From Chloroflexota bacterium (GTDB taxonomy: Bacteria; Chloroflexota; Dehalococcoidia; Lucifugimonadales; UBA3495), in NCBI GenBank assembly GCA_027623675.1, contig JAQBVF010000009.1, forward strand, positions 42,113 to 106,112: a DNA stretch of 64,000 nt, in the 5' to 3' direction. Every line of letters begins with the position of its first letter. Positions within the stretch are counted from its first letter, which is position 1. Positions 552-21,141 of this stretch are shown here, piece after piece. The translations under genes were made by a program, and so were the position numbers. The notes under the pieces are model-generated. The model saw nothing but the letters and a program-made list of their open reading frames with translations. It did not search any database and was not told where the DNA came from.

Positions 552-1319
552 CTAGAGCGCGGCTTCGACCCGTTTCTTGAAATCTTCGCCGGCCAGACGA
601 AGCAGGCCCTGGGATGAAACGGTAATGAAGTCGGCCCCCAGGTTGATGAACTCGGCCACTCCAGCGGCGTCGGCCGGCGAGTTGCCTCCGGCCCCCACAT
701 GTTTTCCCGAGCTCTTTATCTTGGGGATGACCTGCCCCATCAACCTTCGGACCTCGGCAGCCCCTGGATTGCCCATGCTCTGTCCCAAGTCACCGGCAGC
801 CACGTGGAGCACGTCCACGCCGGGAACCGCCAGGATGGCATCCAGGTTATCCACCGCTTCCGTTTCCTCGACCATTGGAATCACCAAGACCTGAGAGTTG
901 ATCCACTTGGCGGATTCTTCCCGGCCAACTCCAACCCCGTAGTCGTGGGCGCGCCCGCCTGCCACGCCCCGGCGTCCCTCCGGGTAGTAACGCGCGGCCT
1001 GGGCCACCGACTGGGCGTCTTCGGCGGTGTTGATGTGAGGCACGATGATTCCCTGCACGCCCCGGTCCAAGAAACGCAGTATGGTAGCGTCGGCGTGGTC
1101 CGGGATCCGGGCGATGGGGGTGATGCCGAAAACCTCCGCCGCCCGGACCATGTGCTCCACCTGGTCCAGGTCCATGGGGCCGTGCTCGCAATCGATCATC
1201 ACGAAGTCGTAGCCGATAGCGCCGAATATCTCGACGATGTCTGGGGCGAAGCGGCTGACAATGGCGCCGTAGACCACTTTGCCCTCGGCCAGTTTTGCCT
1301 TGGTTGTGTTGGTTCGCAT
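552..1319 (-). CDS. HpcH/HpaI aldolase family protein
   Basis: Motifs GYDFVMIDCEHG, LDRGVQGIIVPH, IPMVEE and DLGQSMG. Confidence 0.9.
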   Translation of the reverse strand: MRTNTTKAKLAEGKVVYGAIVSRFAPDIVEIFGAIGYDFVMIDCEHGPMDLDQVEHMVRAAEVFGITPIARIPDHADATILRFLDRGVQGIIVPHINTAEDAQSVAQAARYYPEGRRGVAGGRAHDYGVGVGREESAKWINSQVLVIPMVEETEAVDNLDAILAVPGVDVLHVAAGDLGQSMGNPGAAEVRRLMGQVIPKIKSSGKHVGAGGNSPADAAGVAEFINLGADFITVSSQGLLRLAGEDFKKRVEAAL

Positions 1320-1430
1320 GGTGTGTGGAATCCTCTCCGATGATTGAAATGTTATCTCTATAATTTCTGGTATCTATGAGCCCCAGACTCAAACAGTTGA
1401 CAAGATGTCTTCCCGCATGCTATGATAGCG

Positions 1431-1527
1431 GAGCGTTGTCACAAATTGGTGGCGGCGCTCTTTTTTTGCCCTTTTATCTGGCGCTTACATCTGCTCACTC
1501 AAGTCCCTCAACCGAGGGGCTTTTTTG
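1431..1527 (+). ncRNA. Candidate small RNA (two hairpins, each followed by a U-tract)
   Basis: TTGACA(1397-1402)-18-TATGAT(1421-1426) promoter; hairpin GAGCGTTGTCAC/GTGGCGGCGCTC + T7; hairpin AAGTCCCTC/GAGGGGCTT + T-run; G-U pairs form only on the + strand; both flanking genes are on the minus strand. Confidence 0.5.
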
Positions 1528-1539
1528 TTGGCCGGGATC

Positions 1540-2539
1540 CTACTGATCGGTGGCCGATTCGGGGCCGCCGGCGAACCCAGGCATCACGTCCTTGGCGAAG
1601 CGCCGCAATGTGGGGATACTGGCCGGACAGTTCAGCAACACGTACTCCACCCCGATATCGTGGAGGGCCTGGATCTGTCCGCTAACGTGGTCCGCCGACC
1701 CATAGATGGTCCCCGCCTCGGCGCCCTCGCGCGTGTCTTGGAAATTAGCCTGCTGGGCCAGAGCTTGGGTCCGGCGGCGGGCGGCTATGCGCGACTCGAT
1801 GGCCCGGTCGTAATCGGACTGAGATTCGATGATATTCACGGAACGCGCCACCGCCACGCTCATGGGGTCGAAGGTGCGCCCCAGGGACTCTACCTCCGCT
1901 TTGAAAAGGGCGACTTCCTCGGCAATCATCTCGAATGAATCGAATTGGCCCAGCAGCATGTTGAACCCCAGCTTGGCGACCTGCTTGATGGACCTGGGGC
2001 TGCCAGCCCCCATCCGCAGCTGTGGATGGGGGCTGCTGGACGCTGGGCGGCTCGACCACCACGTCGTGGTACCGCCAGTAGGTCCCTTGGTGCGACCACG
2101 GTGCGTCCGACGTCCAGGACTTCAGCAGCACCTCCAGGCACTCCTCGAAGCGAGCGTCCGCCTCATCCATTGACATGCAGAACCCCTCGAATTCGCTGCG
2201 GCGGTACCCCTTGCCGATCCCGGCGTCGACCCGGCCGTTGGACAGCAGGTCCAGTGTGGCGATCTGTTCCGCCAGCAGGACCGGGTTGTGCCAAGGAAGC
2301 ACGATGACCGCCGTGCCCAAACGCAAAGTGGTCGTGCGCGCCCCGATCCAGGTGAGCAGGTTCAATGTCGCCGACACCTGCCCAAAGCCGGTGAAGTGGT
2401 GTTCCACCAGGAACGTGCTGTGATAGCCCAGCGACTCTGCCTCAACGTTGCGCTCGACAAACTCGCGGAATCCCGCGCCGCTATCCACATTTGGCCCGCC
2501 GCGGCCCGCCTGTGCGCTCCCGAACATCCCGAATCGCAT
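1540..2539 (-). pseudogene. Luciferase-like monooxygenase (LLM) split by a 1-nt frameshift at ~2028-2032
   Basis: ORF 1745-2539 (EHHF, RLGTAVIVLPWHNP, GIGKGY) and ORF 1540-2013 join as ...VQQPHPQLRMGAGSP... if one base is removed from the G5 run; total span is 1000 nt. Confidence 0.8.
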
Positions 2540-2587
2540 GGTCTCTCCTGATCTTGGTGTACCGCCTATTGGTCTGAGAGCCGGGCG

Positions 2588-4375
2588 TCAGCCACCGCTG
2601 TGCTGCCGGTAGCGGTTCACTATGGGCAGGCGCCGGTCCTTTCCGAAGGCCCGGTGGGTTATCTTGACTCCCGGTGCGGCTTGGCGGCGCTTGTACTCGT
2701 TGCGGTCGACGGCGGCCATCACCTGGCGGACCACCTGGGGGTCCATCCCCTGGTCCACCATGTCCTGATAGCTGAGGTCATCCTCCACGTAGGCCTGCAC
2801 CACTGGGTCCAAAACCTCGTAGGGCGGCAAGCTGTCCGAGTCCAGTTGGTCGTCGCGCAGTTCGGCGCTGGGCGGCTTGTCGATGATGCTGGCCGGAATC
2901 ACGCCGTCCCGAGTCCCGAAAGCCTGGCCCTGACCATTTCGCCAGCGGCATAGCTCGTAGACCTTGGTCTTAGGCACGTCCTTCAACACGGCAAAGCCGC
3001 CGGCCATGTCGCCATATAACGTGGCGTAACCCATGGCCATCTCCGACTTGTTACCCGTGGTGAGCACGATCCACCCGAATTTGTTGGACACGGTCATCAG
3101 CACGTTGCCCCGCACCCTGGCCTGTACGTTCTCCTCGGCCACGTTTGGGTCTGTCGCCTTAAACCGGTCCTTCAGCATGTCCTCGAAGGCGCGGTGGGCC
3201 GGCTCGATGGGCACCTCCCATAGCTCCATGCCCAGGTTCTTGGCCAGCGTTTCCGAGTCGCCGATGCTCCCCTGGGAGGAATACCGGGACGGCATGGTGA
3301 TTCCGACCACGTTCTCCTTGCCCAAGGCGTCCACGGCGACCACGGCGGTCAGGGCCGAGTCCACCCCGCCCGACAGGCCGACGAGCGCCTTGGAGAAGCC
3401 CGACTTTCGGAGATAGTCGCCGGTGCCCATGACCAAGGCGCGGTAGACCTCTTCGGGGCCGTTGATGGCGTCGGCGATGGTCTTGCCCGGCAGCGGCGTT
3501 TTACTTGCGGTTCCGGGGCCGGAGACGGTCATGGCTTTGGGCGTGCCCACGGCTGCGACAGCCGCGCTCGTAACGCCGGCCGGACCCTGCTTCCGGCTGG
3601 CTGGAGCGTCCTGGAATTCCAGGTCGGTCACGATCAGCGCCTCTTCGAAAGAGGGGCCGCGGGCCAACAGTTCGCCGGCCGAATCATAGATGATGCTGCC
3701 GCCGTCGAAGACCAGTTCATCCTGCCCGCCAACCGTGTTCACGTAAGCGACGGTCAGTCCGTGGTCCACGGCGCGTTGGGCGATCATATCTTCCCGAAAT
3801 GCGCGTTTGCCCGCCTGGAACGGCGAGGCGTTGATGTTGACGATCAGTTCGGCCCCGGCTCGGCACTGGACCGTCGTCGGCCCCACCGGATACCAGATGT
3901 CTTCGCAGATATTCACCCCGATGGACACCCCCTCGACGCGATACACCGGACAGACCGAGCCCCTCTGGAAATAACGCTGTTCGTCGAACACGCCGTAGTT
4001 GGGCAGAAATATCTTGTGGTAGGTGTCCACGACCCGCCCGTCATGGGCCAGGGCGGCGGCGTTGGCGATCGGAATGCCCATGTCTTCGGGCCCGCGGTCA
4101 TGGGAAAGTATGTTCACGTAGCCGATGACCGCCGTGATGCCCTTGGCGGCGGCGGCGATCTTTTCCATGGCGCCCACGTTTTCGGTCAGGAAAGAGGTCT
4201 TGAAGAGCAGGTCTTCGGGAGGGTAACCCGTGGTGGCCATCTCGGGGAAGGCAACCAAGTCGGCCTGGGCCTCGCGGGCGCGTTCCAGGTACTCAAGAAT
4301 CTTGGCGGTGTTGCCGGCGATGTCTCCGACAGTTGGGTTGATCTGCGCCAGCGCCAGGCGTAAGGTCCGTGCCAT
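2588..4375 (-). CDS. nadE: Glutamine-dependent NAD+ synthetase
   Basis: N-terminal nitrilase domain (FPEM, KIFLPNYGVFDE, ICEDIW) plus SGGVDS, ENVQAR, TGNKSE, GYATLYGD, PPSAEL and EYKRRQA. Confidence 0.96.
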   Translation of the reverse strand: MARTLRLALAQINPTVGDIAGNTAKILEYLERAREAQADLVAFPEMATTGYPPEDLLFKTSFLTENVGAMEKIAAAAKGITAVIGYVNILSHDRGPEDMGIPIANAAALAHDGRVVDTYHKIFLPNYGVFDEQRYFQRGSVCPVYRVEGVSIGVNICEDIWYPVGPTTVQCRAGAELIVNINASPFQAGKRAFREDMIAQRAVDHGLTVAYVNTVGGQDELVFDGGSIIYDSAGELLARGPSFEEALIVTDLEFQDAPASRKQGPAGVTSAAVAAVGTPKAMTVSGPGTASKTPLPGKTIADAINGPEEVYRALVMGTGDYLRKSGFSKALVGLSGGVDSALTAVVAVDALGKENVVGITMPSRYSSQGSIGDSETLAKNLGMELWEVPIEPAHRAFEDMLKDRFKATDPNVAEENVQARVRGNVLMTVSNKFGWIVLTTGNKSEMAMGYATLYGDMAGGFAVLKDVPKTKVYELCRWRNGQGQAFGTRDGVIPASIIDKPPSAELRDDQLDSDSLPPYEVLDPVVQAYVEDDLSYQDMVDQGMDPQVVRQVMAAVDRNEYKRRQAAPGVKITHRAFGKDRRLPIVNRYRQHSGG

Positions 4376-4550
4376 CTACATCCTCATTTGGGCTTGAGCC
4401 GAGTATACAGACTTCCAAATCGACATGCCAATCCAACCGGCCTTCGGCCCAGCGGCGGGCCGGTGGTGGACAAGCATTGCCTGCCAAGGCTAACATTCGG
4501 ACACCGAATACGGACGCCGAGCACGGGTACAAACACACAGGAGAAGAACC

Positions 4551-4946
4551 ATGGAATACGCCATCAACCATGTCCACATCAGGGCCGCCGACCCCAGGGC
4601 GTCCGCAGCCTGGTACGAGAAGATATTCAACGCCAAGATCGTTTCGGAGCGCGAGGTAATGCCCGGCACCGTCACCATCGGCATGCAGGTGGGCGGCCCG
4701 ACCCGGCTGAACATCTCCTCACAGCCCCAGGGTTCGTCACCCAAACGTGCCTCCGCCGAACTCAACCAGTTGGGCCTGGAGCATTTTGGATTCCATGTGG
4801 AAGACCTGGCGGCGGAGATGACGCGGCTGGAGGCCGAGGGTATCCGCGTGGTGCTGCCCCTTACCGTCACGCCCCAGGGCATCAAACTCGCCTACATCGA
4901 AGGCCCGGACGACGTCCTGATCGAGCTTGTCCAGGCCGCCGCTTAA
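4551..4946 (+). CDS. VOC/glyoxalase family protein
   Basis: INHVHI, GLEHFGFHVEDL and YIEGPDDVLIEL; GGAG RBS. Confidence 0.9.
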   Translation: MEYAINHVHIRAADPRASAAWYEKIFNAKIVSEREVMPGTVTIGMQVGGPTRLNISSQPQGSSPKRASAELNQLGLEHFGFHVEDLAAEMTRLEAEGIRVVLPLTVTPQGIKLAYIEGPDDVLIELVQAAA

Positions 4947-4994
4947 CAACTAGACCCGCCTAGATATAGATATAGATTAATAAGGTTGGATCCA

Positions 4995-6665
4995 ATGTCC
5001 CAAATGATGACCGGCAAACAGGCGCTGCTGGAGATGCTGAAAGTGGAGGGAGTGAAACACATCTTCGGCAATCCCGGCACCAGCGAAGCTCCCATAATCG
5101 ACATGCTCGGCGACTACCCCGAATTTCAGTACTTCCTCACGCTGCAGGAAAGCGTCGCCATGGGCATGGGCGAGGCCTACGCTAGAGCCACTGAGAAGCC
5201 GTCCTTCGTTAGCTTGCATGTGGACAGCGGGCTGGCCAACGGCATCGCCATCATGCTGGACGCCCTGAACACGGGCACGCCCATGGTGGTGACCTCCGCC
5301 AACTACGACGCCCGCAAGATCAACGAGACCAAGACCGATCTGGCGGAACTGGTCCGCCCGGCCACCAAGTGGTCGGTGGAACTCAACCTGCCGGACCAGA
5401 TCCCCTCGGCCATCCGCCGGGCGTTCATCGAGGCCAACAGCCACCCCAAGGGTCCGGTCTACGTCGGGTTCACCGCCAACGCCCTGGAGGGTGAGGCCGA
5501 GATGAACATCGTGCCGTCCAGCAAGGTACACGACGCCTACCGGCCCGACCTCCAGGCCATCGGGGAAGCGGCGTCGCTGCTGCTGGCGGCCAAGCAGCCC
5601 ATGCTGATCGTCGGCGACCGGGTGTCCGAGGACCACGCCAACGACCAAGCGGTGGAACTGGCCGAGCTGCTGGGCCTGCCGGTCTACCAGTCCCGGGGCG
5701 CCGAGGTTTCCTTCCCGACCACCCATCCCCAGTTCTTCGGCAACCACACCCTGCGGGTCGCCCGGGGCCGTGAGGTGCTGGAGGAGATGGACCTGGTGCT
5801 GGCCGTGGGCATGGACGCCATGGACGAATTGTTCTATTGGGGTGACATCATCCTTGGCCCCAACACCAAGTTGATCCACATCGACCCCATCCCAGGCCGG
5901 GTTGGCCGTTCGGAACCCACCGATGTGGGCATCATTTCCCACTGCAGGCTGGGCCTGGAAGACCTGCTGGCCGCCATCAAGCCCCAGCTCACCCCGGCCC
6001 TGGAGCGGGAGATTGAAGCCCGCAAAGCCGAGGTCACGGCGGAGGCGGCGGCCAAGCGGAAGGCCTTCGATGACTCTGTCGCCGCCAAATGGGACCAGAA
6101 ACCCATGACTCCGGCGCGGATGATGTCGGAGTTGGCCGACGCCATCCCCGACAACGCCATCGTGGTGGACGACTCCATCAGCAACCGGGCGACCATGCGC
6201 CATTACTTCCAGGGCCAGAAACGGGGCGACCTGCGGGCGTTCCGGGGCCAGTCGATCGGCGGCGGCATCGGCACGACCATGGGCACCCAGGTGGCCAACC
6301 CCGGCCGGCCCGTGTTCGGCATCATCGGCGACGGCAGCGCCATGATGACCATCCAAGGCCTGTGGACTGCGGCCAACGACAACATCCCCTGCATCTTCGT
6401 CATCTGCAACAACGGCATGTACCGCGTCTTGAAGGTCAACTTCGACGTGTACCAGCGGGACGTGTTGCATCAGGAGGAATCGGCGGGCGCCAACCTGCCG
6501 TACTCCGACTTCCCCACTCCCTTCGACGTGGCGGCCATCGCATCCAGCATGGGCGTCCACGGCGAACGCATCACCGACCCCGCCGAGATCGCTCCAGCCG
6601 TGCAGCGCGCCGTGGCGTCTGGCAAACCGGCGGTGCTGGACATAGTCATCGACGGGTCCTTCTAG
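4995..6665 (+). CDS. Thiamine pyrophosphate-binding enzyme (benzoylformate decarboxylase/ALS-like)
   Basis: IFGNPGTSE, QESVAMGM and the TPP motif GDGS...CNN; exact start (4986/4995/5004) uncertain. Confidence 0.9.
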   Translation: MSQMMTGKQALLEMLKVEGVKHIFGNPGTSEAPIIDMLGDYPEFQYFLTLQESVAMGMGEAYARATEKPSFVSLHVDSGLANGIAIMLDALNTGTPMVVTSANYDARKINETKTDLAELVRPATKWSVELNLPDQIPSAIRRAFIEANSHPKGPVYVGFTANALEGEAEMNIVPSSKVHDAYRPDLQAIGEAASLLLAAKQPMLIVGDRVSEDHANDQAVELAELLGLPVYQSRGAEVSFPTTHPQFFGNHTLRVARGREVLEEMDLVLAVGMDAMDELFYWGDIILGPNTKLIHIDPIPGRVGRSEPTDVGIISHCRLGLEDLLAAIKPQLTPALEREIEARKAEVTAEAAAKRKAFDDSVAAKWDQKPMTPARMMSELADAIPDNAIVVDDSISNRATMRHYFQGQKRGDLRAFRGQSIGGGIGTTMGTQVANPGRPVFGIIGDGSAMMTIQGLWTAANDNIPCIFVICNNGMYRVLKVNFDVYQRDVLHQEESAGANLPYSDFPTPFDVAAIASSMGVHGERITDPAEIAPAVQRAVASGKPAVLDIVIDGSF

Positions 6666-6741
6666 GCCGGAGCGGTCCGGTGAAAGGGTGTCAGGACAGA
6701 AACAGATGACCTAGGCAGGCGGGGGTAGACAGAGGTAAACG

Positions 6742-7239
6742 ATGGAAGCTGAGTTGGATATCTTTCAGACCGTGGTAGCCAAGGCGGCCGGCATCTCACC
6801 CGGCGGCCCATTGGCAGCGGTTTTCGCCGGCCGCCGCGACATCATGGAGTTGACCGAGCGGTCCCACAACGCCTCGCTCAAGCCCAACAACCCTGGCGGG
6901 CTGAGCCATTCCGAGCGGGCGGCGCTGGCCTGCCGCATCGCCAAGCTGAACAACGAACCAGAACTGGCCCGGCACTACGAAGGCCTGATGGACGGCGAGA
7001 ACCATGGCCTGGCCGATACCGGGTTCGACGGCGGAAGTGACGCCCGGTTGAAAGCCATGCTCCGGCACACCGACTTGGTGACCCTGGATCCCAAGTCCGC
7101 CGTGGCAAGCGACGTATCCGCACTCCGGGCGGTGGGAATGAACGACCCGGATATCGTCCGGCTGTCCCAGTTGATTGCCTTCGTGAGCTACCAGATACGG
7201 GTGGTGGCCGGCCTGCGGCTGATGGAGGAGGTGGCATGA
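6742..7239 (+). CDS. CMD-domain protein (first of a CMD/AhpD pair)
   Basis: HTDLVT..P, DIVRLSQLIAFVSYQIRVVAGLRL; stop overlaps the next start (ATGA). Confidence 0.8.
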   Translation: MEAELDIFQTVVAKAAGISPGGPLAAVFAGRRDIMELTERSHNASLKPNNPGGLSHSERAALACRIAKLNNEPELARHYEGLMDGENHGLADTGFDGGSDARLKAMLRHTDLVTLDPKSAVASDVSALRAVGMNDPDIVRLSQLIAFVSYQIRVVAGLRLMEEVA

Positions 7240-13382: not shown

Positions 13383-14900
13383 ATGTCTTCGACCGACCTG
13401 GACCATGCCGGCGGCACCTCCCTGACCCGCAGCCCAAACTACAAGTATTGGGTCTTTGGGGCCTTGGCCATCGGCACGTTCGCATCGGTGGTGGACCACG
13501 GCAGCGTCAACGTGGCCCTGCCGACCATCGCCACCAGATTCCAGACCGACCTGCCGACCATCCAATGGGTGGTCATAACCTACGCCCTCACCATCAGCGC
13601 GCTGCTGCTGCCCATGGGGCGTCTCTCGGACCTTATCGGCCGCCGTAAGGTGTACATCGCAGGAATGGCGGTGTTGGCCATCGGAGCGGCATTGGCCGGG
13701 CTGTCACCCAACCTGGAGATGCTGTTCCCGGCCCGGGTGCTGCAGGGCGTGGGCGCCGCCATGACCCAGGGCACGGGCATGGCCATCATCACATCAGCAT
13801 TCCCGCCCAACGAGAAAGGCCGGGCCATCGGACTGATCATGACCATGGTGGGGGTGGGCGCGGTTGCCGGTCCGGCCATCGGGGGGCTGGCCGTCGACGC
13901 CTTTGGCTGGCGCGCGGTGTTCTTCCTGACCATCCCCTTGGAGGTCATCGGCGTGGCCGTCACTCTGTGGGTGATGCGCGGCTGGGCGGACGTTCGGGAA
14001 TCCGGGAGAGCCCGGTTCGACTGGTTGGGAGCCACACTGTCGGCGGGGATATTGGTGGCCTTGCTGATCACCATGACCACCGGCAACAAGACCGGCTGGT
14101 TTTCGCCGGTCATCCTGGCCGCCTTCGCCGGGTCCGCCGCCATGCTCGCCACCTTCATATGGTGGGAATTGCACACCACCGCCCCAATGTTGGACCTGCG
14201 GCTATTCAAGGGCGTAACTTTCTCGCTGGGCGTGTCGGCGGCTTTCCTGACGTTCCTGGGGTCGTCGGCGGTCCTATTCCTGATGCCCTTCTATCTGCAG
14301 AACGTGTTGGGCTACAGCGCCAAGACCGCCGGCTTTGTCGTGGTGCCCGGAGCGTTATGCATGGCGGTGCTGGGGTCGGTCAGCGGGGTGCTCTCCGACC
14401 GGTTCGGGTGGCGTCCATTCACGGTGGGTGGCCTGGCGTCTTCGGCCACCGGACTTATCATCCTGTCGCGGGTCACCGAGACATCGCCGCTATGGATGGT
14501 GGTGCCGGCGCTGATGCTGATGAACAGCGGCATGGGAACCTTCTATTCGCCCAACTCCAGTTCGGTGATGAACTCGGTCAGTCCCGACAAGTACGGCGTG
14601 GTGTCCGGGTTCTTGAACCTGGTGCGAAACGCCGCCAACGTCACCAGCATCGCCGTCGCCACCATCATCGTCACCGCCACCATGGGTTCATTGGGCTTCG
14701 AGCCAAGCTTGGAAGCGGTCCGGGGCGGCAGCGAGGGGGTTGGCCACGCATTTACCGTGGGACTCCGCTACGCCTTCTTGGTGATGATGGGGATGGTTCT
14801 CTCAGCCATGACCATCTCCGCCCTGCAACGGGGACGCTCCGGAGAGGAGGCCGCTGACCCGGCGGCCGACGCCCTGGGAAGGTCCCAGGCCGACGATTAA
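13383..14900 (+). CDS. MFS efflux transporter, DHA2/EmrB-QacA family
   Basis: VNVALPTI, GRLSDLIGRR, RVLQGVG, GPAIGG, WRAVF, PMLDLRLF; about 14 TM segments. Confidence 0.92.
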   Translation: MSSTDLDHAGGTSLTRSPNYKYWVFGALAIGTFASVVDHGSVNVALPTIATRFQTDLPTIQWVVITYALTISALLLPMGRLSDLIGRRKVYIAGMAVLAIGAALAGLSPNLEMLFPARVLQGVGAAMTQGTGMAIITSAFPPNEKGRAIGLIMTMVGVGAVAGPAIGGLAVDAFGWRAVFFLTIPLEVIGVAVTLWVMRGWADVRESGRARFDWLGATLSAGILVALLITMTTGNKTGWFSPVILAAFAGSAAMLATFIWWELHTTAPMLDLRLFKGVTFSLGVSAAFLTFLGSSAVLFLMPFYLQNVLGYSAKTAGFVVVPGALCMAVLGSVSGVLSDRFGWRPFTVGGLASSATGLIILSRVTETSPLWMVVPALMLMNSGMGTFYSPNSSSVMNSVSPDKYGVVSGFLNLVRNAANVTSIAVATIIVTATMGSLGFEPSLEAVRGGSEGVGHAFTVGLRYAFLVMMGMVLSAMTISALQRGRSGEEAADPAADALGRSQADD

Positions 14901-14916
14901 CCGGCTGACAGTCAGC

Positions 14917-15252
14917 CTATAGAGGACTTTGTCCCAGCAATCCCGCGAACCGCAGGCCCCACAAGACTCCAGCCAGTCCCGTGGACAGTATCAACGTGAC
15001 GGTCGCCCGGTTCTTCCACGCCGACCCCCACCAGCTGCCATGAGACTGCGCCAGCCACCAGCCCCGCGCCAACATGAGCACGGTTAAAGCCAAGAAAGGC
15101 CAGGTCATCACCCGCAACGCGGGCGCCAAGGCCAACCCGGCCGACGTTCCCCCCAGAACACCGAGCAGGCCCGGGACCACTCATCACCAAGGAAGCGGCA
15201 ACAGTCCACTGAGCAGGCTTACGAACGGCTTTTCCAACGCAAATAGTTTCAT
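14917..15252 (-). CDS. merT: MerT-like mercuric transporter with tandem selenocysteines (U23-U24)
   Basis: ATG at 15252; MKLFALEKPFVSLLSGLLPLPW-TGA-TGA(15181-15186)-VVPGLLGVLGG...ALRVMTWPFLALTVLMLARGWWL...; 111 aa with about 3 TM segments; the two TGAs sit where MerT has Cys-Cys followed by xxP; directly downstream of merA. Confidence 0.75.
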
Positions 15253-15391
15253 TGTTTCCCCAACTCTCTCGTCAGATATCTGCCACGCACTACGGCTGCT
15301 CCGGGTGAGTAAACTCAAGGGCAGCGGTGGAACGGCCAGTCAGATCAGATTTTCCCAAGGCCCGCTGTCTGAAACTCAAGCGCAGGGTCAC

Positions 15392-16828
15392 CTACTCGAC
15401 GCAGCAACTCATCTGAGACACATCCCGCGTGAAGGCTTGCGCCGCTCGCTTTATACCCTCGCTCAGGGTCGGAAATACGTGGACGGTATCGATTATGTCG
15501 TCGATGGTCAGGCTGAATTTCACCGCCATAGTGGCTTCGTGAATCAGGTCCGCGGCATGGGGCGCGACGATGTGAACGCCAAGCACCTTGGAGTTACTTG
15601 GATCGATGACCATCTTGAAAACGCCACGGTCATCCTTGGTGGCCTCTGCCTTTGGGACCGCGTCCATGTAGATGGTGCGGCAAGCGCAGGCTTTGGTCCT
15701 GCGCATCAGCTCCTCTTCAGTGATGCCAACCGACCCCACCTCAGGGTCCGTGAAAACGGCATGGGGCACTTCGTCATAGTTGATGCTCCTACGCGCGGAA
15801 GTCAGCGCATTGTCCGCGGCCAACGCCCCTTCTTTGGCCGCGACCGTCTCCAACGCCATCTTTCCGACACAGTCGCCGGCGGCGAAGACGTCCGGGTTAT
15901 CGGTCTGGTAATACTCGTCGACCTGGATGAAACCGTTTCCGTTGGCTTTCACACCGGCTTTCTCCAGCTGTAACGCGCCGGTATTGGCCTGGATGCCCGC
16001 GGCCAGCAGCAATTGGTCCGCCTCCAGGTCGGTTGCCGTTGTAACAAGACTTCGGTTCCGTTGGACCCCGCTGCCGCCCCGGACCGTGACGATCTTCCTG
16101 CCGTTCCGTTCAGCCACCTTGTCCACCGTTACACCCACGTGAAACTCGATCCCCTCGTTCTCCAGGTTGCGTTGTAGTTCGGCGGCTACCTCCGGCTCCT
16201 CACGGGGCAGAATTCGGTCCATGGCCTCCACCACGGTTACCTTCGTGCCAAAGCGAGCGAACATCTGGGCGAATTCCAATCCCAAGGGCCCGCCGCCAAT
16301 AACGATCATTGATTCAGGCAGTTCTTGAAGCGCGAGCGCCGAGACGTTGTTCAGCCAGCGAACTTGGTCGATGCCGTCGATCGGCAGAACCCTAGTGGAA
16401 GACCCGGTGGCGATGATTATCTTCTCCGCTTCGTAGGTCTGACCGCCGGCTTCCACGGCATTCGGCCCAACGAAACTGGCCACAGCCTCTAGCAGGGTAA
16501 CCGTATCCAGGCCATCCAGAACGTTGCGGTAATTCCTCTGCCGCAAAGCGCCCACAAGCTCATCCTTTTCTTGGATGGCGGTCTTAAAATCGAAATCGGG
16601 GCGGCGCCCATTGGAGATAGAGTTGAAATTTGAGTGGGAGCTGTAAAAAAGGTCATTGCCCACGCTGAGCAGGTGTTTACTGGGAACACAGCCAACGTTG
16701 ACGCAGGTGCCGCCCAGGGGCAGGCCGCTGTTGATCATGAGCGCGCTCTTGCCAAGATCCGCCGCTTTGGTCGCCGCTGCGAAGGCCGCCGCTCCGCCTC
16801 CGATGATTATCAGGTCAAGCTTATCCAT
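15392..16828 (-). CDS. merA: Mercuric reductase, catalytic core only (no NmerA domain)
   Basis: GGGAAA FAD motif, [13 protein letters not shown] redox pair, HVFPTLSE, C-terminal [11 protein letters not shown] vicinal Cys pair. Confidence 0.93.
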
Positions 16829-17035
16829 GGTCGCCTCTCAGTTATTGTTGTTTTAATCAGGTTAGTTTGGCTTTTGACGAGGGGACATTTAGCTCAAGGA
16901 TGAACACATCCTAAGTGCGCTATTGAAGACTCGAGGCATACCCTCTCTCCACGAGTTGCTTCAGCAATGTTTCGGCGTTACTGGACCGAAACTTTCCCCC
17001 ACTGTCTGGATTCCGATAAACGATCGAGGCCTTGA

Positions 17036-17560
17036 TCACAGCGTCCGTTCAATCTCGGTCTTCAAAACGTCGTACGACGTAGCGCCGCCGTCACGGTAGG
17101 AGACGAGTCCATTTCGATCCAGGATTATGGTCGTGCCCAGGCTCGTCACTCCGAACTCCTTGACCAACCGGCCGCCGGTATCGTTTGCCCAGGTCACATC
17201 TTCAGCCCCCTTGCTATGCCAGTAATCGCGCCATTCCTCCACGGAGACCCAGGCGGCGGTATTGATGGCCAGAACCTGGACTCCCTGGGACTGAAATTCC
17301 CGTTGCGCCCGCCCTAAGGCTGGAGCCTCCAGCCCGCAGGTGGGTCAACCGGGAAACGAGAAGTAAAGGACCACGGTTTTACCCAGGTAGTCGTCCATCG
17401 CCAAGGAGACTGCTGGAACAGCTCCGCCGGGTCCGTCGGCGGCCGGAGGGCCGGAATCGTTCGCCCCTGAGACGGCCGTGTTGCCTCCGCAGCCGGCCAG
17501 CGCGGCGGTCAATGCCAACATGATCAGAAAAGCGAGCGCCCTGGGGTAGGTTGATCTCAA
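17036..17560 (-). CDS. TlpA/ResA-like thioredoxin-fold lipoprotein, selenoprotein (U72-P-T-C)
   Basis: ORFs 17345-17560 and 17036-17242 share one frame joined by TGA at 17345-17347: ...GKTVVLYFSFPG-U-PTCGLEAPALGRAQREFQSQGVQVLAIN...FGVTSLGTTIILDRNG; lipobox LAGC; 174 aa. Confidence 0.88.
17318..17334 (-). other. SECIS-like hairpin for the TGA at 17345
   Basis: GGCTGGAG-G-CTCCAGCC inverted repeat starting 10 nt after the UGA. Confidence 0.65.
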
Positions 17561-17575
17561 ATCAGCTCCGGAGGG

Positions 17576-17740
17576 TCAACTTGGAATATGGTGGTCAAGC
17601 GAAGCGGTCGATCCTGGTACCGGGTCTGGTGTTTCGGGTGGCCCGCTTGGGGACCGGCGGAACACCATGGCGCCCAGCCCGATCATGGCCGGGATCAAGA
17701 TACAGCAGATAACCGGAAATGCGGCCAGGAAAGCTCCCAC
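17576..17740 (-). CDS. Small single-TM membrane protein with a Cys-Cys motif (MerF/MerT TM1-like)
   Basis: GTG start: MGAFLAAFPVICCILIPAMIGLGAMVFRRSPSGPPETPDPVPGSTASLDHHIPS* (54 aa); fills the gap within the operon; an alternative start ATG 17773 needs read-through of TGA 17759-17761. Confidence 0.6.
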   Translation of the reverse strand: MGAFLAAFPVICCILIPAMIGLGAMVFRRSPSGPPETPDPVPGSTASLDHHIPS

Positions 17741-17828
17741 GATTACCTGCTTCGCCTTTCAGAAGTAGTCCATGAAACCGACCGCGGCTTTTGGCTCCGG
17801 TAGAACGCCAATTTCGGTGGTGCGGCCA

Positions 17829-18065
17829 CTATTCAGCCAGCAATTTTTCGAAGCGGGCGCGGTCAAATCCCACCACGACCTCGCCGTCGATCACGGTAAC
17901 CGGGGTGGTCAACACACCCAGCTTCATCAACTCGTCCATTGCGGACTTGTCGTTCATGACATCCCGTTCCACAAAAGGAACATCCCGTTGCAAAAGATAA
18001 TCTTTTGCCATCTCACAGAAGTGTCAACCGTCGGGTTGGGTGTAAACGAATATCTCGCGTGTCAT
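17829..18065 (-). CDS. Glutaredoxin/NrdH-like selenoprotein (U14-H-F-C)
   Basis: AAGGAG RBS, ATG at 18065: MTREIFVYTQPDG-U(TGA 18024-18026)-HFCEMAKDYLLQRDVPFVERDV...TTPVTVIDGEVVVGFD; 78 aa. Confidence 0.9.
17990..18008 (-). other. SECIS-like hairpin for the TGA at 18024
   Basis: GCAAAAGA-TTA-TCTTTTGC stem starting 15 nt after the UGA. Confidence 0.55.
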
Positions 18066-18115
18066 GAACTCTCCTTACTAAACTGATGGCTGGCTAAACA
18101 CCTGAGCGTGGCGTA

Positions 18116-18559
18116 CTACCGAGGACGTTTGACGGCTGGGGCGGTCCGACGGTGTGCGACGTCGCTCTGTTCGATTATCGAGCAGATCTCCCCTCCCTCG
18201 GTCTTGCAGTCGACCAGGCCGATCGAGTGCTCTCTTAGCTCGACCAGGTCGCCTTTGAGGGCTTTCAGGTCTTCTATTGATGCCTCAACATCCGATATCT
18301 TTTGGTCCAACAGGTCGCGGACGTGGATGCACGTCGCTTCTTTCGCGTCATGCAATCGAAAGATTCCCCGAATCTCATTCAAAGAGAACCCCAATCGCTT
18401 CGCTTTAAGGATGAATTCCAGCCTACTCAACGACTCCCCATCGTACGAACGGTAGCCCCCAGTTGTCCTTGGGGGCTCCGGCATCAGGCCTTCGGCCTCA
18501 TAGAACCTGATGGTCTTGGTGTTCGTGCCGGTGGCGCGGGCCAATTCGCCAATCTTCAC
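18116..18559 (-). CDS. merR: MerR-family heavy-metal-responsive regulator
   Basis: MKIGELA...TIRFYEAEGL...GGYRSY, LGFSLNEI; three Cys (ATCIHV, VDCKT, EICSII) in the MerR/CadR/PbrR arrangement; first gene of the merA operon. Confidence 0.88.
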   Translation of the reverse strand: MKIGELARATGTNTKTIRFYEAEGLMPEPPRTTGGYRSYDGESLSRLEFILKAKRLGFSLNEIRGIFRLHDAKEATCIHVRDLLDQKISDVEASIEDLKALKGDLVELREHSIGLVDCKTEGGEICSIIEQSDVAHRRTAPAVKRPR

Positions 18560-18588
18560 TGATCGCTCCTGGATAGCTGCTGAATCCG

Positions 18589-18620
18589 ATTCTAAACCTT
18601 CCAGTATACTGGAATGTCAA
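18589..18620 (-). promoter_or_regulatory. MerR-type promoter/operator: TTGACA-20bp-TAGAAT with perfect dyad TTCCAGTATACTGGAA
   Basis: -35 at 18615-18620, -10 at 18589-18594, palindrome at 18599-18614 inside the elongated spacer. Confidence 0.9.
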
Positions 18621-20362: not shown

Positions 20363-20435
20363 GGGCCGTTAGCTCAGTTGGCAGAGCACCGGACTTTTAA
20401 TCCGGGTGTCGTGGGTTCGACCCCCACACGGCCCA
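20363..20435 (+). tRNA. tRNA-Lys (anticodon TTT), CCA not encoded
   Basis: Acceptor stem GGGCCGT/ACGGCCC, D-arm AGCTCAGTTGGCAGAGC, anticodon arm CCGGA-CTTTTAA-TCCGG, GGTTCGA T-loop. Confidence 0.97.
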
Positions 20436-20670
20436 CTTCTACTTCCTCGGTTTTGACAGACACCTAGCCACTGCTTGGTCTGGAGCATCAGGCCATACGG
20501 CTCGGCGCCCATTGGCTCCCTCCTCGGTGTCGTCAACGGTTCTTTGATAAACGTTGGATCACCCGGTCGCCACGGCGACTCATCCATTGCAAAGACATCA
20601 CGATAGGCAGTAGTCATCCGTCCGGGGAAAGACGGCGAGTCAATCTGGCCGGGTAGTATCATATCGAGAC

Positions 20671-21141
20671 ATGATTCTGATAGTGAAGTTACTATTTGTC
20701 GCCCTCGCAGTAAGCCTGCTTGCCGGTTGCGCGACATCCAGAACCATCTCCGGCGCTCTCGATTCCGAAGCAACGAACAACATTGAAGTAGTCAGGATTA
20801 TCGACGGCGATACTCTAGATGTCTTGATCTCCGGCGTCCCGCATAGGGTCCGGCTATTTGGGGTCGACACACCTGAGTGGGGAGAGCCGTGTTACCAGGA
20901 AGCAAGCGACCGCCTGCGGCAACTGGCCGGTGACGTAGCGCGTATCGAGGCTGGGCCGAGGGCTGAAGATACCTACGGCAGACTGTTGTTCTATCTTTAT
21001 ACTCTAGACGGAGAAAGCATTGACGCGACGCTGATCTCAGAAGGCTTGGCTAAAGCCCGGACCGGCGACGGCCAGTACCGAGACCTTCTGGTCAACCTGG
21101 AGGAGGAAGCTAGGACGCAGGGAGTTGGTTGCCTGTGGTGA
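20671..21141 (+). CDS. Thermonuclease (SNase-like) lipoprotein
   Basis: Lipobox LAGC; IIDGDT, VRLFGVDTPE, DTYGRLL, GLA, EARTQGVGCLW. Confidence 0.9.
   Translation: MILIVKLLFVALAVSLLAGCATSRTISGALDSEATNNIEVVRIIDGDTLDVLISGVPHRVRLFGVDTPEWGEPCYQEASDRLRQLAGDVARIEAGPRAEDTYGRLLFYLYTLDGESIDATLISEGLAKARTGDGQYRDLLVNLEEEARTQGVGCLW

Follow-up and report, generated by a model that had tools for sequence, protein, structure and literature searches.

A six-gene operon from an aquatic member of the Dehalococcoidia (Chloroflexota) appears to be a mercury-detoxification system in which selenocysteine (Sec) takes the place of metal-binding and redox cysteines. The operon lies on the minus strand of a 64,000-nucleotide (nt) stretch of assembly GCA_027623675.1 (contig JAQBVF010000009.1, positions 42,113 to 106,112; hereafter the window), at window positions 14917 to 18620, and encodes a MerR-family regulator, a glutaredoxin, a small Cys-Cys membrane protein, a TlpA-type lipoprotein, the mercuric reductase MerA and a MerT-like membrane carrier. 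The genes for the glutaredoxin, the lipoprotein and the carrier contain in-frame TGA codons, four in total, each at a position where the protein family has a cysteine. We hypothesize, with somewhat better than even confidence, that this operon of the Dehalococcoidia is a mer-type system for Hg(II) detoxification with a selenol relay made up of three selenoproteins. That it is a variant of the mer operon with several selenoproteins, and that its composition is modular and not fixed, is well supported.

The initial annotation of this DNA had proposed six co-oriented genes behind a MerR-type promoter, and both the gene coordinates and the promoter box proved correct. The promoter (18589..18620) has a -35 element TTGACA (18620-18615) and a -10 element TAGAAT (18594-18589) with a 20-nt spacer, and a perfect 16-bp dyad (18614-18599) lies between them. 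The box also precedes merR in six relatives, and a promoter scan with 16-18-nt spacers missed it, as expected for a long spacer. Logan contigs from two aquatic-metagenome runs span the stretch with no differing letters; as these runs may be the source of this DNA, a consensus slip is excluded but the agreement is not independent. The host genome comprises 3.07 Mb and is 91% complete.

The four TGAs are very probably Sec codons, given the machinery of the host, their conservation, their alignment with cysteines, the RNA hairpins that follow them and the selection acting downstream. The read-through products carry U-H-F-C in the glutaredoxin (17829..18065, 78 amino acids (aa), TGA at 18026-18024), U-P-T-C in the TlpA/ResA-type lipoprotein (17036..17560, 174 aa, TGA at 17347-17345) and P-W-U23-U24 in the carrier (14917..15252, 111 aa, consecutive TGAs at 15186-15181). 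The search for Sec machinery that the initial annotation had proposed found all of it in the host genome: selA, selB, selD (with its own in-frame TGA) and tRNA-Sec(UCA); the tRNA-Trp found is CCA only. Detection of selB succeeded in 29 of 36 carrier genomes, many of which are incomplete. A peptide-pattern scan recovered TGA-TGA in 44 of 44 carrier loci, and no Cys or mixed form occurs among these Dehalococcoidia loci; the true stops of the 43 intact ones are TAA (17), TAG (15) and TGA (11), so that the internal pair stays constant while the true stop varies, and does not drift as a stop would. Two decayed copies in the genus have lost one TGA. The single TGA of the TlpA gene is kept in 9/9 matches from 301 genomes of the order, and that of the glutaredoxin gene in 4/4 relatives where a glutaredoxin was found adjoining the Sec-Sec gene. 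At all these positions homologues have Cys, namely 17 database proteins with a PWCC motif, the CxxC of Pfam models and plasmid-borne TlpAs. The initial annotation had named relaxed selection after the TGAs as evidence that would count against it, and purifying selection was found there instead. The ratio of nonsynonymous to synonymous substitution rates (dN/dS) downstream of the Sec pair, measured against genus relatives, is 0.14-0.28 in six intact copies and 0.61 in a frameshifted one; over the remainder of TlpA it is 0.18-0.25 in three relatives and 0.45 in the most distant one, where the stretch compared is short; and downstream in the glutaredoxin it is 0.04-0.09 against three genus relatives, the fourth comparison being saturated.

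A crude scan of the host genome returned 29 candidate Sec sites, of which 18 were kept as plausible, and the lineage, selenoprotein-rich throughout, employs Sec in many unrelated redox proteins. The very high-affinity system for trace Hg that the initial annotation had suggested is not supported in that form. The host candidates include six of UGSC/UGGC type on contigs C13, C17, C20, C35 (twice) and C46, along with others that, going by their motifs, may be GrdB-like, peroxiredoxin, TlpA, carboxymuconolactone-decarboxylase-like and MFS-like proteins, the last a membrane protein with an in-frame TGA (C13:89464).

All three selenoprotein genes have a predicted hairpin resembling a selenocysteine insertion sequence (SECIS) downstream of the UGA. 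That of the TlpA gene (17317..17335) starts at +10, and its core, CTGGA-GGC-TCCAG, is invariant in 11/11 distinct copies with covarying outer pairs; 13 of 500 synonymous shuffles fold equally well. The glutaredoxin hairpin (17990..18008), at +16, is equalled by 1 of 500 synonymous shuffles, and its loop is GUA or GUU in four relatives; in this copy the loop is UUA and the stem is compensated. Short stems with loops at about +18 to +24, often G-initial, are found in most of the other candidate Sec genes of the host.

The UGA-UGA of the carrier gene is followed by two hairpins. Hairpin 1 (15130..15171) has a stem from +10 and a variable loop at about +29, which is G-initial in 40 of 43 copies; its energy alone is not unusual (53 of 500 shuffles are as stable), and 95.9% of its cells are paired in an alignment of 27 sequences. 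This alignment leaves out broken, duplicate or unparsed copies and is therefore biased to intact TGA-TGA copies; the overlapping 44-locus set gives the fair count. Hairpin 2 (15108..15126) is an 8-bp stem with a GUU triloop at +63 to +65. Among 43 copies its loop is GUU in 38, UUU in 4 and CUU in 1, its Leu codon is TTG in 43/43 (other Leu columns reach 37-69%), its stem shows a C-G/U-A exchange (24 versus 14), and 9 of 500 synonymous shuffles fold equally well. Over both hairpins 94.7% of cells are paired and 14 are changed on both sides in the 27 sequences, a paired-cell score reached by 0 of 500 column shuffles and compared with 33-51% for slid controls, although the structure was derived from the same sequences on which it was scored, and kinship inflates such scores. 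When the 42 nt of hairpin 1 are subtracted, the loop of hairpin 2 moves from +63 to +21, the usual loop place, which suggests either one hairpin per UGA or a first hairpin that acts as a spacer and keeps the SelB site intact over two steps. The two conserved hairpins after UGA-UGA are new, and possibly serve one selenocysteine each. A clade of carriers with the UUU loop (L188, L189, L193 and L194) has no mer neighbour by the markers used; it offers a natural test of SelB specificity. The conserved UGA-UGA with its two hairpins likewise offers a natural model for consecutive Sec insertion by bacterial SelB, of use for making multi-Sec proteins.

The Sec-Sec carrier contains no Cys anywhere. Its vicinal Sec pair sits in the first membrane helix, and profile comparison aligns it to the first Cys pair of MerT with 97% probability (E 1.7e-11) when Cys orthologues are included; without them the MerT match is 89%, and the match to a Paenibacillus protein in the merT slot is 96.5%. 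The initial annotation had read the protein as MerT with a Sec pair, and a relation to MerT is supported. When a Cys orthologue is compared with annotated plasmid proteins, MerT comes out on top, with weak E-values. Among 27 family members none matches PF02411, and 26 touch NF033556 (best E 8e-4, far below its cut-off); a PF02411 search of the host genome gave nothing over cut-off. An AlphaFold model shows three long helices (mean predicted local distance difference test score 71.8, predicted template modelling score 0.50), for which a fold search of the PDB gave no match at E 0.001, and the family profile found only unrelated membrane proteins among PDB sequences. As judged from these profiles, the protein is MerT-related, would work like MerT at most, and is not a member of MerT by curated models; it is part of a distinct PWCC/PWUU family that has no name. 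Run against 1.84 billion proteins, the family profile gave 40 matches, most of them fragments, and 17 full-length proteins that have P-W-C-C in place of P-W-U-U; databases hold the Sec form almost exclusively as an 85-87-aa fragment. The Cys orthologues occupy the merT slot in merR-PWCC-HMA loci: a MerR-family gene is present in 18 of 41 Cys-form loci, often with an HMA protein next, and a merB-like gene in 2. In one Sec-form locus (L062, G705; 1166-1714, minus strand) a thioredoxin-like frame with SPT-U-PVC, without a Pfam or NCBIfam match, lies upstream of the Sec-Sec gene.

The merA gene (15392..16828, 478 aa) is genuine by the curated model, as the initial annotation had it, and Hg(II) reduction is predicted: the protein scores 537.5 bits against TIGR02053 (cut-off 454.45), and its best PDB matches are mercuric reductases. 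It lacks the N-terminal NmerA domain, ends in CCVE and has the catalytic residues C42/C47 (Cys207/Cys212), Y100 (Tyr264) and C475/C476 (Cys628/Cys629); the residue criteria, which add Tyr605 in bacteria or Phe605 in archaea, are those given in PMC8261052. In FastTree phylogenies this MerA groups with those of G442 and G483, from other genera (support 0.956), not with that of the congener G003, and the carrier groups with genus copies (0.991). The discordance suggests a separate merA insertion between tlpA and the carrier gene, so that a five-gene cassette was probably in place before merA entered it, the alternative being loss of merA in sibling genomes. The merA borders show no telling repeats, and a MerP/HMA remnant was looked for in the 208-nt gap before merA and not found. 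An insertion of about 10 residues in MerA (window 16020-16100) is common to part of the Dehalococcoidia MerAs, and 21 nt of it are 95% complementary, probably by chance, to 14716-14736 in an MFS gene.

The regulator (merR, 18116..18559, 147 aa) matches Pfam MerR and combines three Cys (77, 118 and 126), retained in relatives, with a dyad in a long-spacer promoter, as MerR does; this pattern is also common to Cd and Pb sensors. Its NCBIfam scores are 118 bits for CadR-PbrR, 105 for ZntR and 104 for MerR, all below cut-off. The glutaredoxin/NrdH-like read-through product matches PF00462 (E 4e-14; U14-H-F-C17), and that of TlpA matches AhpC-TSA/Redoxin and has a lipobox, LAGC (U72-P-T-C75); neither passes a curated NCBIfam selenoprotein model. 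The Cys-Cys mini-protein (17576..17740, 54 aa) is a single-helix membrane protein without Sec, and has no family match in Pfam or NCBIfam and no usable match in the ESM Atlas. A fifth Sec site, an upstream ATG with an in-frame TGA before this gene (17773-17759), was considered and rejected, relatives starting at the position that matches 17740. Of the 14 loci where the TlpA Sec site was found, 11 have a similar CC helix no more than 900 nt away from it, and CcdA flanks TlpA in several loci of the order. CcdA is not in the operon, and a PF02683 search of the host genome finds none; a mer-locus CcdA query does find a CcdA-like gene on host contig C42, at 51% identity. Because TlpA is flanked by the mini-protein and CcdA, as in known mer loci, a role as reductant is favoured over mercury capture. 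Of the two roles suggested for the lipoprotein by the initial annotation, keeping the outer face reduced is thus the one retained; capture of mercury as a MerP substitute is disfavoured, as an HMA/MerP-like protein and TlpA occur together in other loci of the order. In the host genome HMA domains occur in one 846-aa frame only. A search of the genome for MerB (PF03243) gave nothing over cut-off, but the same search found no control, so that it does not show absence.

A search for the Sec-Sec gene succeeded in 16 of 41 near relatives, in 25 of 301 genomes from the order and in 2 of 401 from the phylum. Each sample includes the host, which with one weak match makes up the phylum count; the 25 become 24 once G586 (a weak match without TGA) is dropped. 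Of the 44 loci, 43 come from named Chloroflexota or Dehalococcoidia, two of them labelled SAR202, and one from an uncultured bacterium. As judged by statistics and gene context, the link to mercury is real. merA occurs in 8 of the 24 carriers against 10 of the 277 other genomes of the order (Fisher p 1e-5, overstated as kin are not independent), the merA matches of the order having been reduced from 20 to 18 by dropping G672 and G712, which are under cut-off and of a type with about 31% identity. Neighbours of the Sec-Sec gene in the 44 loci are merR (11), merA (8), GDCCVxC (8), Sec-type TlpA (7) and glutaredoxin (5), more rarely ArsR (4), HMA (4) and MerE-like genes (3); in G628 merB is immediately upstream. 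All six gene kinds recur in a different order in G003, of the same genus, and with an ArsR-type regulator in locus L155; further genus members retain only the carrier. A carrier or merA is also present in 7 of the 9 genomes with Sec-TlpA, and, judged by eye, at least one candidate Sec gene stands in the merA locus of 11 of the 18 merA genomes of the order. Candidates in these other merA loci are HMA proteins with UxxC or CxxU, a rhodanese with UxxxxU and a peroxiredoxin with UxxC; Cys-form TlpA and HMA genes occur there too.

Two further mer loci of the order are of interest in their own right. L130 (G476; 2533-7229, minus strand) has up to four Sec codons and holds ArsR, merA, a MerE-like gene, a rhodanese-CBS gene (UxxxxU), CcdA, HMA (CxxU), a CC mini-protein and TlpA (UxxC); in L121 (G495; 2091-2863, minus strand) merA is followed by a MerP-like UxxC lipoprotein and a Cys-Cys MerT-like gene. 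Around the present operon, the slot between an MFS gene and an ABM-type gene (window 14900-14917 and 18925) holds variable cargo among genus members, namely the full cassette, the cassette without merA, other enzymes or nothing, and the Sec-Sec gene remains adjacent to the MFS gene whatever that cargo is. Nearby, a tRNA-Lys and a neighbouring nuclease-like lipoprotein gene (window 20363-21141) lie in lower-GC DNA, a possible small integration site.

In the selenol relay that we favour, Hg(II)-bound MerR would turn the operon on, and the Sec-Sec protein would hold Hg(II) two-coordinately in the membrane, like the first Cys pair of MerT. The Sec-TlpA lipoprotein would keep the outer-face Sec-Sec or the Cys-Cys of the mini-protein reduced, and would itself be reduced again by a CcdA-type protein whose gene lies outside the operon; the Sec-glutaredoxin would replace both the missing NmerA and the missing cytoplasmic Cys pair of MerT, handing Hg(II) to the C-terminal cysteines of MerA, which would then let Hg(0) go. 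There is a precedent, cited in PMC8261052: in Synechocystis a glutaredoxin acts together with a MerA-like enzyme. It is tentatively conceivable, at distinctly lower confidence, that the mer relay has been rebuilt on selenium as such: the Sec-Sec site would capture trace Hg(II), a selenol chain of TlpA outside and glutaredoxin inside would enable transfer to MerA, and the two-hairpin element would pre-load one SelB complex per UGA or keep the SelB site clear of the advancing ribosome.

Several observations weigh against a dedicated Hg(II) relay to MerA. Transfer of mercury from two selenolates to thiolates should be uphill; a selenol acceptor, the Sec-glutaredoxin, would ease it, and failure of transfer would favour a sink. 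The regulator fails the Hg-specific model TIGR02051 (104 versus 150.85 bits; three relatives score 92-97). The Sec-Sec protein is below every curated MerT cut-off (PF02411, NF010314 and NF033560), and the second, cytoplasmic Cys pair of MerT is missing, the loop that bears it being absent from the alignment. MerA position 605 is Phe (F452), as in 18 of 19 aligned Dehalococcoidia MerAs (the 19th is truncated), and Phe605 variants of bacteria have not been assayed according to PMC8261052. The loop G of the glutaredoxin hairpin is lost in this copy. merA is missing from 16 of the 24 Sec-Sec carriers and from the cassette at the same locus in three congeneric genomes (G011, G004 and G005), so that the fixed six-gene architecture put forward by the initial annotation does not hold; only 8 of 44 loci have merA within 4 kb of the Sec-Sec gene, and several loci have ArsR-type regulators. 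No true merA was found in the fetched flanks of 41 Cys-form loci, many of which are short, and besides the present copy 8 of the 15 genus copies of the Sec-Sec gene are broken.

It is hardly credible that the TGAs arose by nonsense mutation or encode Trp. This reading could draw on the broken copies in relatives and on W-W or C-W at the site in three database proteins (P0013, P0083 and P0074), for which gene calls made under a TGA=Trp code are the simplest reading; it is contradicted by the constancy of TGA-TGA beside variable stops, by purifying selection on both sides of the codons, by the Cys orthologues and the tRNA complement, and by the use of TGA to terminate the mini-protein and TlpA genes. 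Also improbable, though less so, is that the module serves a different soft metal (Cd, Zn, Cu, Ag or Pb) and acquired merA by insertion in this genome. The top scores of the regulator for CadR/PbrR and ZntR, the presence close to some copies of ArsR/CmtR-like regulators and a cation-efflux gene, and TlpA relatives in Cd/Cu islands of actinobacterial plasmids would fit this, yet the cassette has no efflux pump, and its neighbours elsewhere are merA, merB, merE, GDCCVxC and MerP-like genes. Somewhat less unlikely is that the Sec core (regulator, glutaredoxin, mini-protein, TlpA and Sec-Sec carrier) is a sink for mercury or soft metals and a redox-repair module that performs no reduction, with Hg retained by Sec-Sec and merA an occasional passenger. 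The cassettes without merA, the discordant trees of MerA and carrier, many intact orphan Sec-Sec copies at 50-65% identity and the affinity of selenolates speak for it; the recurrence of merA beside the Sec-Sec gene in different gene orders and genera, the expensive stoichiometry of two Sec per Hg and the frequent decay of orphan copies in the genus speak against it.

The alternative that comes closest, a possibility to be taken seriously if still doubtful, is that the operon is an ordinary mer operon and its Sec incidental, in a lineage that widely swaps redox and metal-site Cys for Sec and whose Sec forms act as Cys forms do. It agrees with the selenol relay on function and differs only on whether selenium matters. 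The 18 plausible Sec sites of the host, Cys-form TlpA and HMA in other merA loci, Cys-Cys carrier orthologues in other bacteria and the two Dehalococcoidia genomes in the BSepDB top ten (PMC13326102) are consistent with it. What tells against it is that 44 loci show no Cys or mixed form despite the required conserved RNA structure and the yield cost of UGA-UGA (30-40% per UGA in E. coli, according to PMC4513850), and that MerR, MerA and the mini-protein retain Cys. The selenol relay remains the reading we prefer.

The antagonism between selenium and mercury is usually understood as a poisoning of selenoproteins by mercury; in this operon Sec appears deliberately placed in the path of mercury, beside a real mercuric reductase. 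Each part occurs naturally in both a Sec and a Cys version, which makes the effect of Sec at the metal site directly testable. Gene callers shorten all three selenoproteins, and the carrier is mostly a fragment in databases, so that mer-gene surveys of deep-water and groundwater Chloroflexota miss these components. If the relay is indeed built on selenium, selenium supply would control microbial mercury reduction in marine and groundwater habitats.

Among known systems the nearest in composition are the staphylococcal mer operon (merR-TlpA-CcdA-merT, plasmid NZ_CP054833), which shares a metal regulator, a TlpA-type protein, a MerT-like carrier and MerA, and actinobacterial merB-merA loci with TlpA-CcdA (NZ_CP044212 and NZ_CP053565), built of the same part types; the regions shown lack merP, as here. 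Their TlpAs have Cys pairs, whereas TlpA, glutaredoxin and carrier have Sec in the present operon, which also lacks CcdA and adds the glutaredoxin and the mini-protein. The likeness of the TlpA to known mer-locus TlpAs is weak (27%, to that of a Rhodococcus mer locus, and 22%); it is nevertheless better read as a counterpart of these CcdA-partnered proteins than as a MerP substitute, and TrxA/CcdA are listed as 'mercury transporters' in PMC12195606. Like the carrier, MerT (PF02411) and the Gram-positive RC607-type MerT (NF033560) have three membrane helices, the first with a vicinal pair and x-x-P after it (matched at 97% and 96.5% profile probability), but the carrier falls below their cut-offs, has Sec-Sec for Cys-Cys and lacks the cytoplasmic pair. 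MerT-family selenoproteins with a CU motif (WP_250634603.1) are described by Haft and Gwadz (bioRxiv 10.1101/2022.07.06.499078), and a 'putative mercuric transport protein' with one Sec appears in Table 1 of PMC13188914 (NCBIfam NF045683); they have Sec at the MerT metal site as here, but one instead of two adjacent. Only 4 of the 27 carrier family members touch NF045683 (best E 0.03), and no UU motif is listed for the 119 selenoprotein families of that table. The same source lists UxxC glutaredoxin (PF00462) and redoxin (PF08534) selenoproteins of the same fold and motif, which here are placed in a mer operon. The literature covered, from which subscription journals are mostly missing, yielded no Sec-based mer operon and no report of consecutive UGAs read by SelB or of adjacent Sec in bacteria. 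The SAO system of Clostridioides difficile, described by Haft and Gwadz, resembles the present operon in having several selenoproteins per operon and a proposed mercury-like substrate; it differs in having an ABC transporter and a MerB-like lyase and no MerA or MerR, and is argued to be metabolic rather than a resistance system. Set beside these systems, a TlpA in a mer operon is already known in Cys-based form, and the Sec-Sec site and the double hairpin are the most surprising parts.

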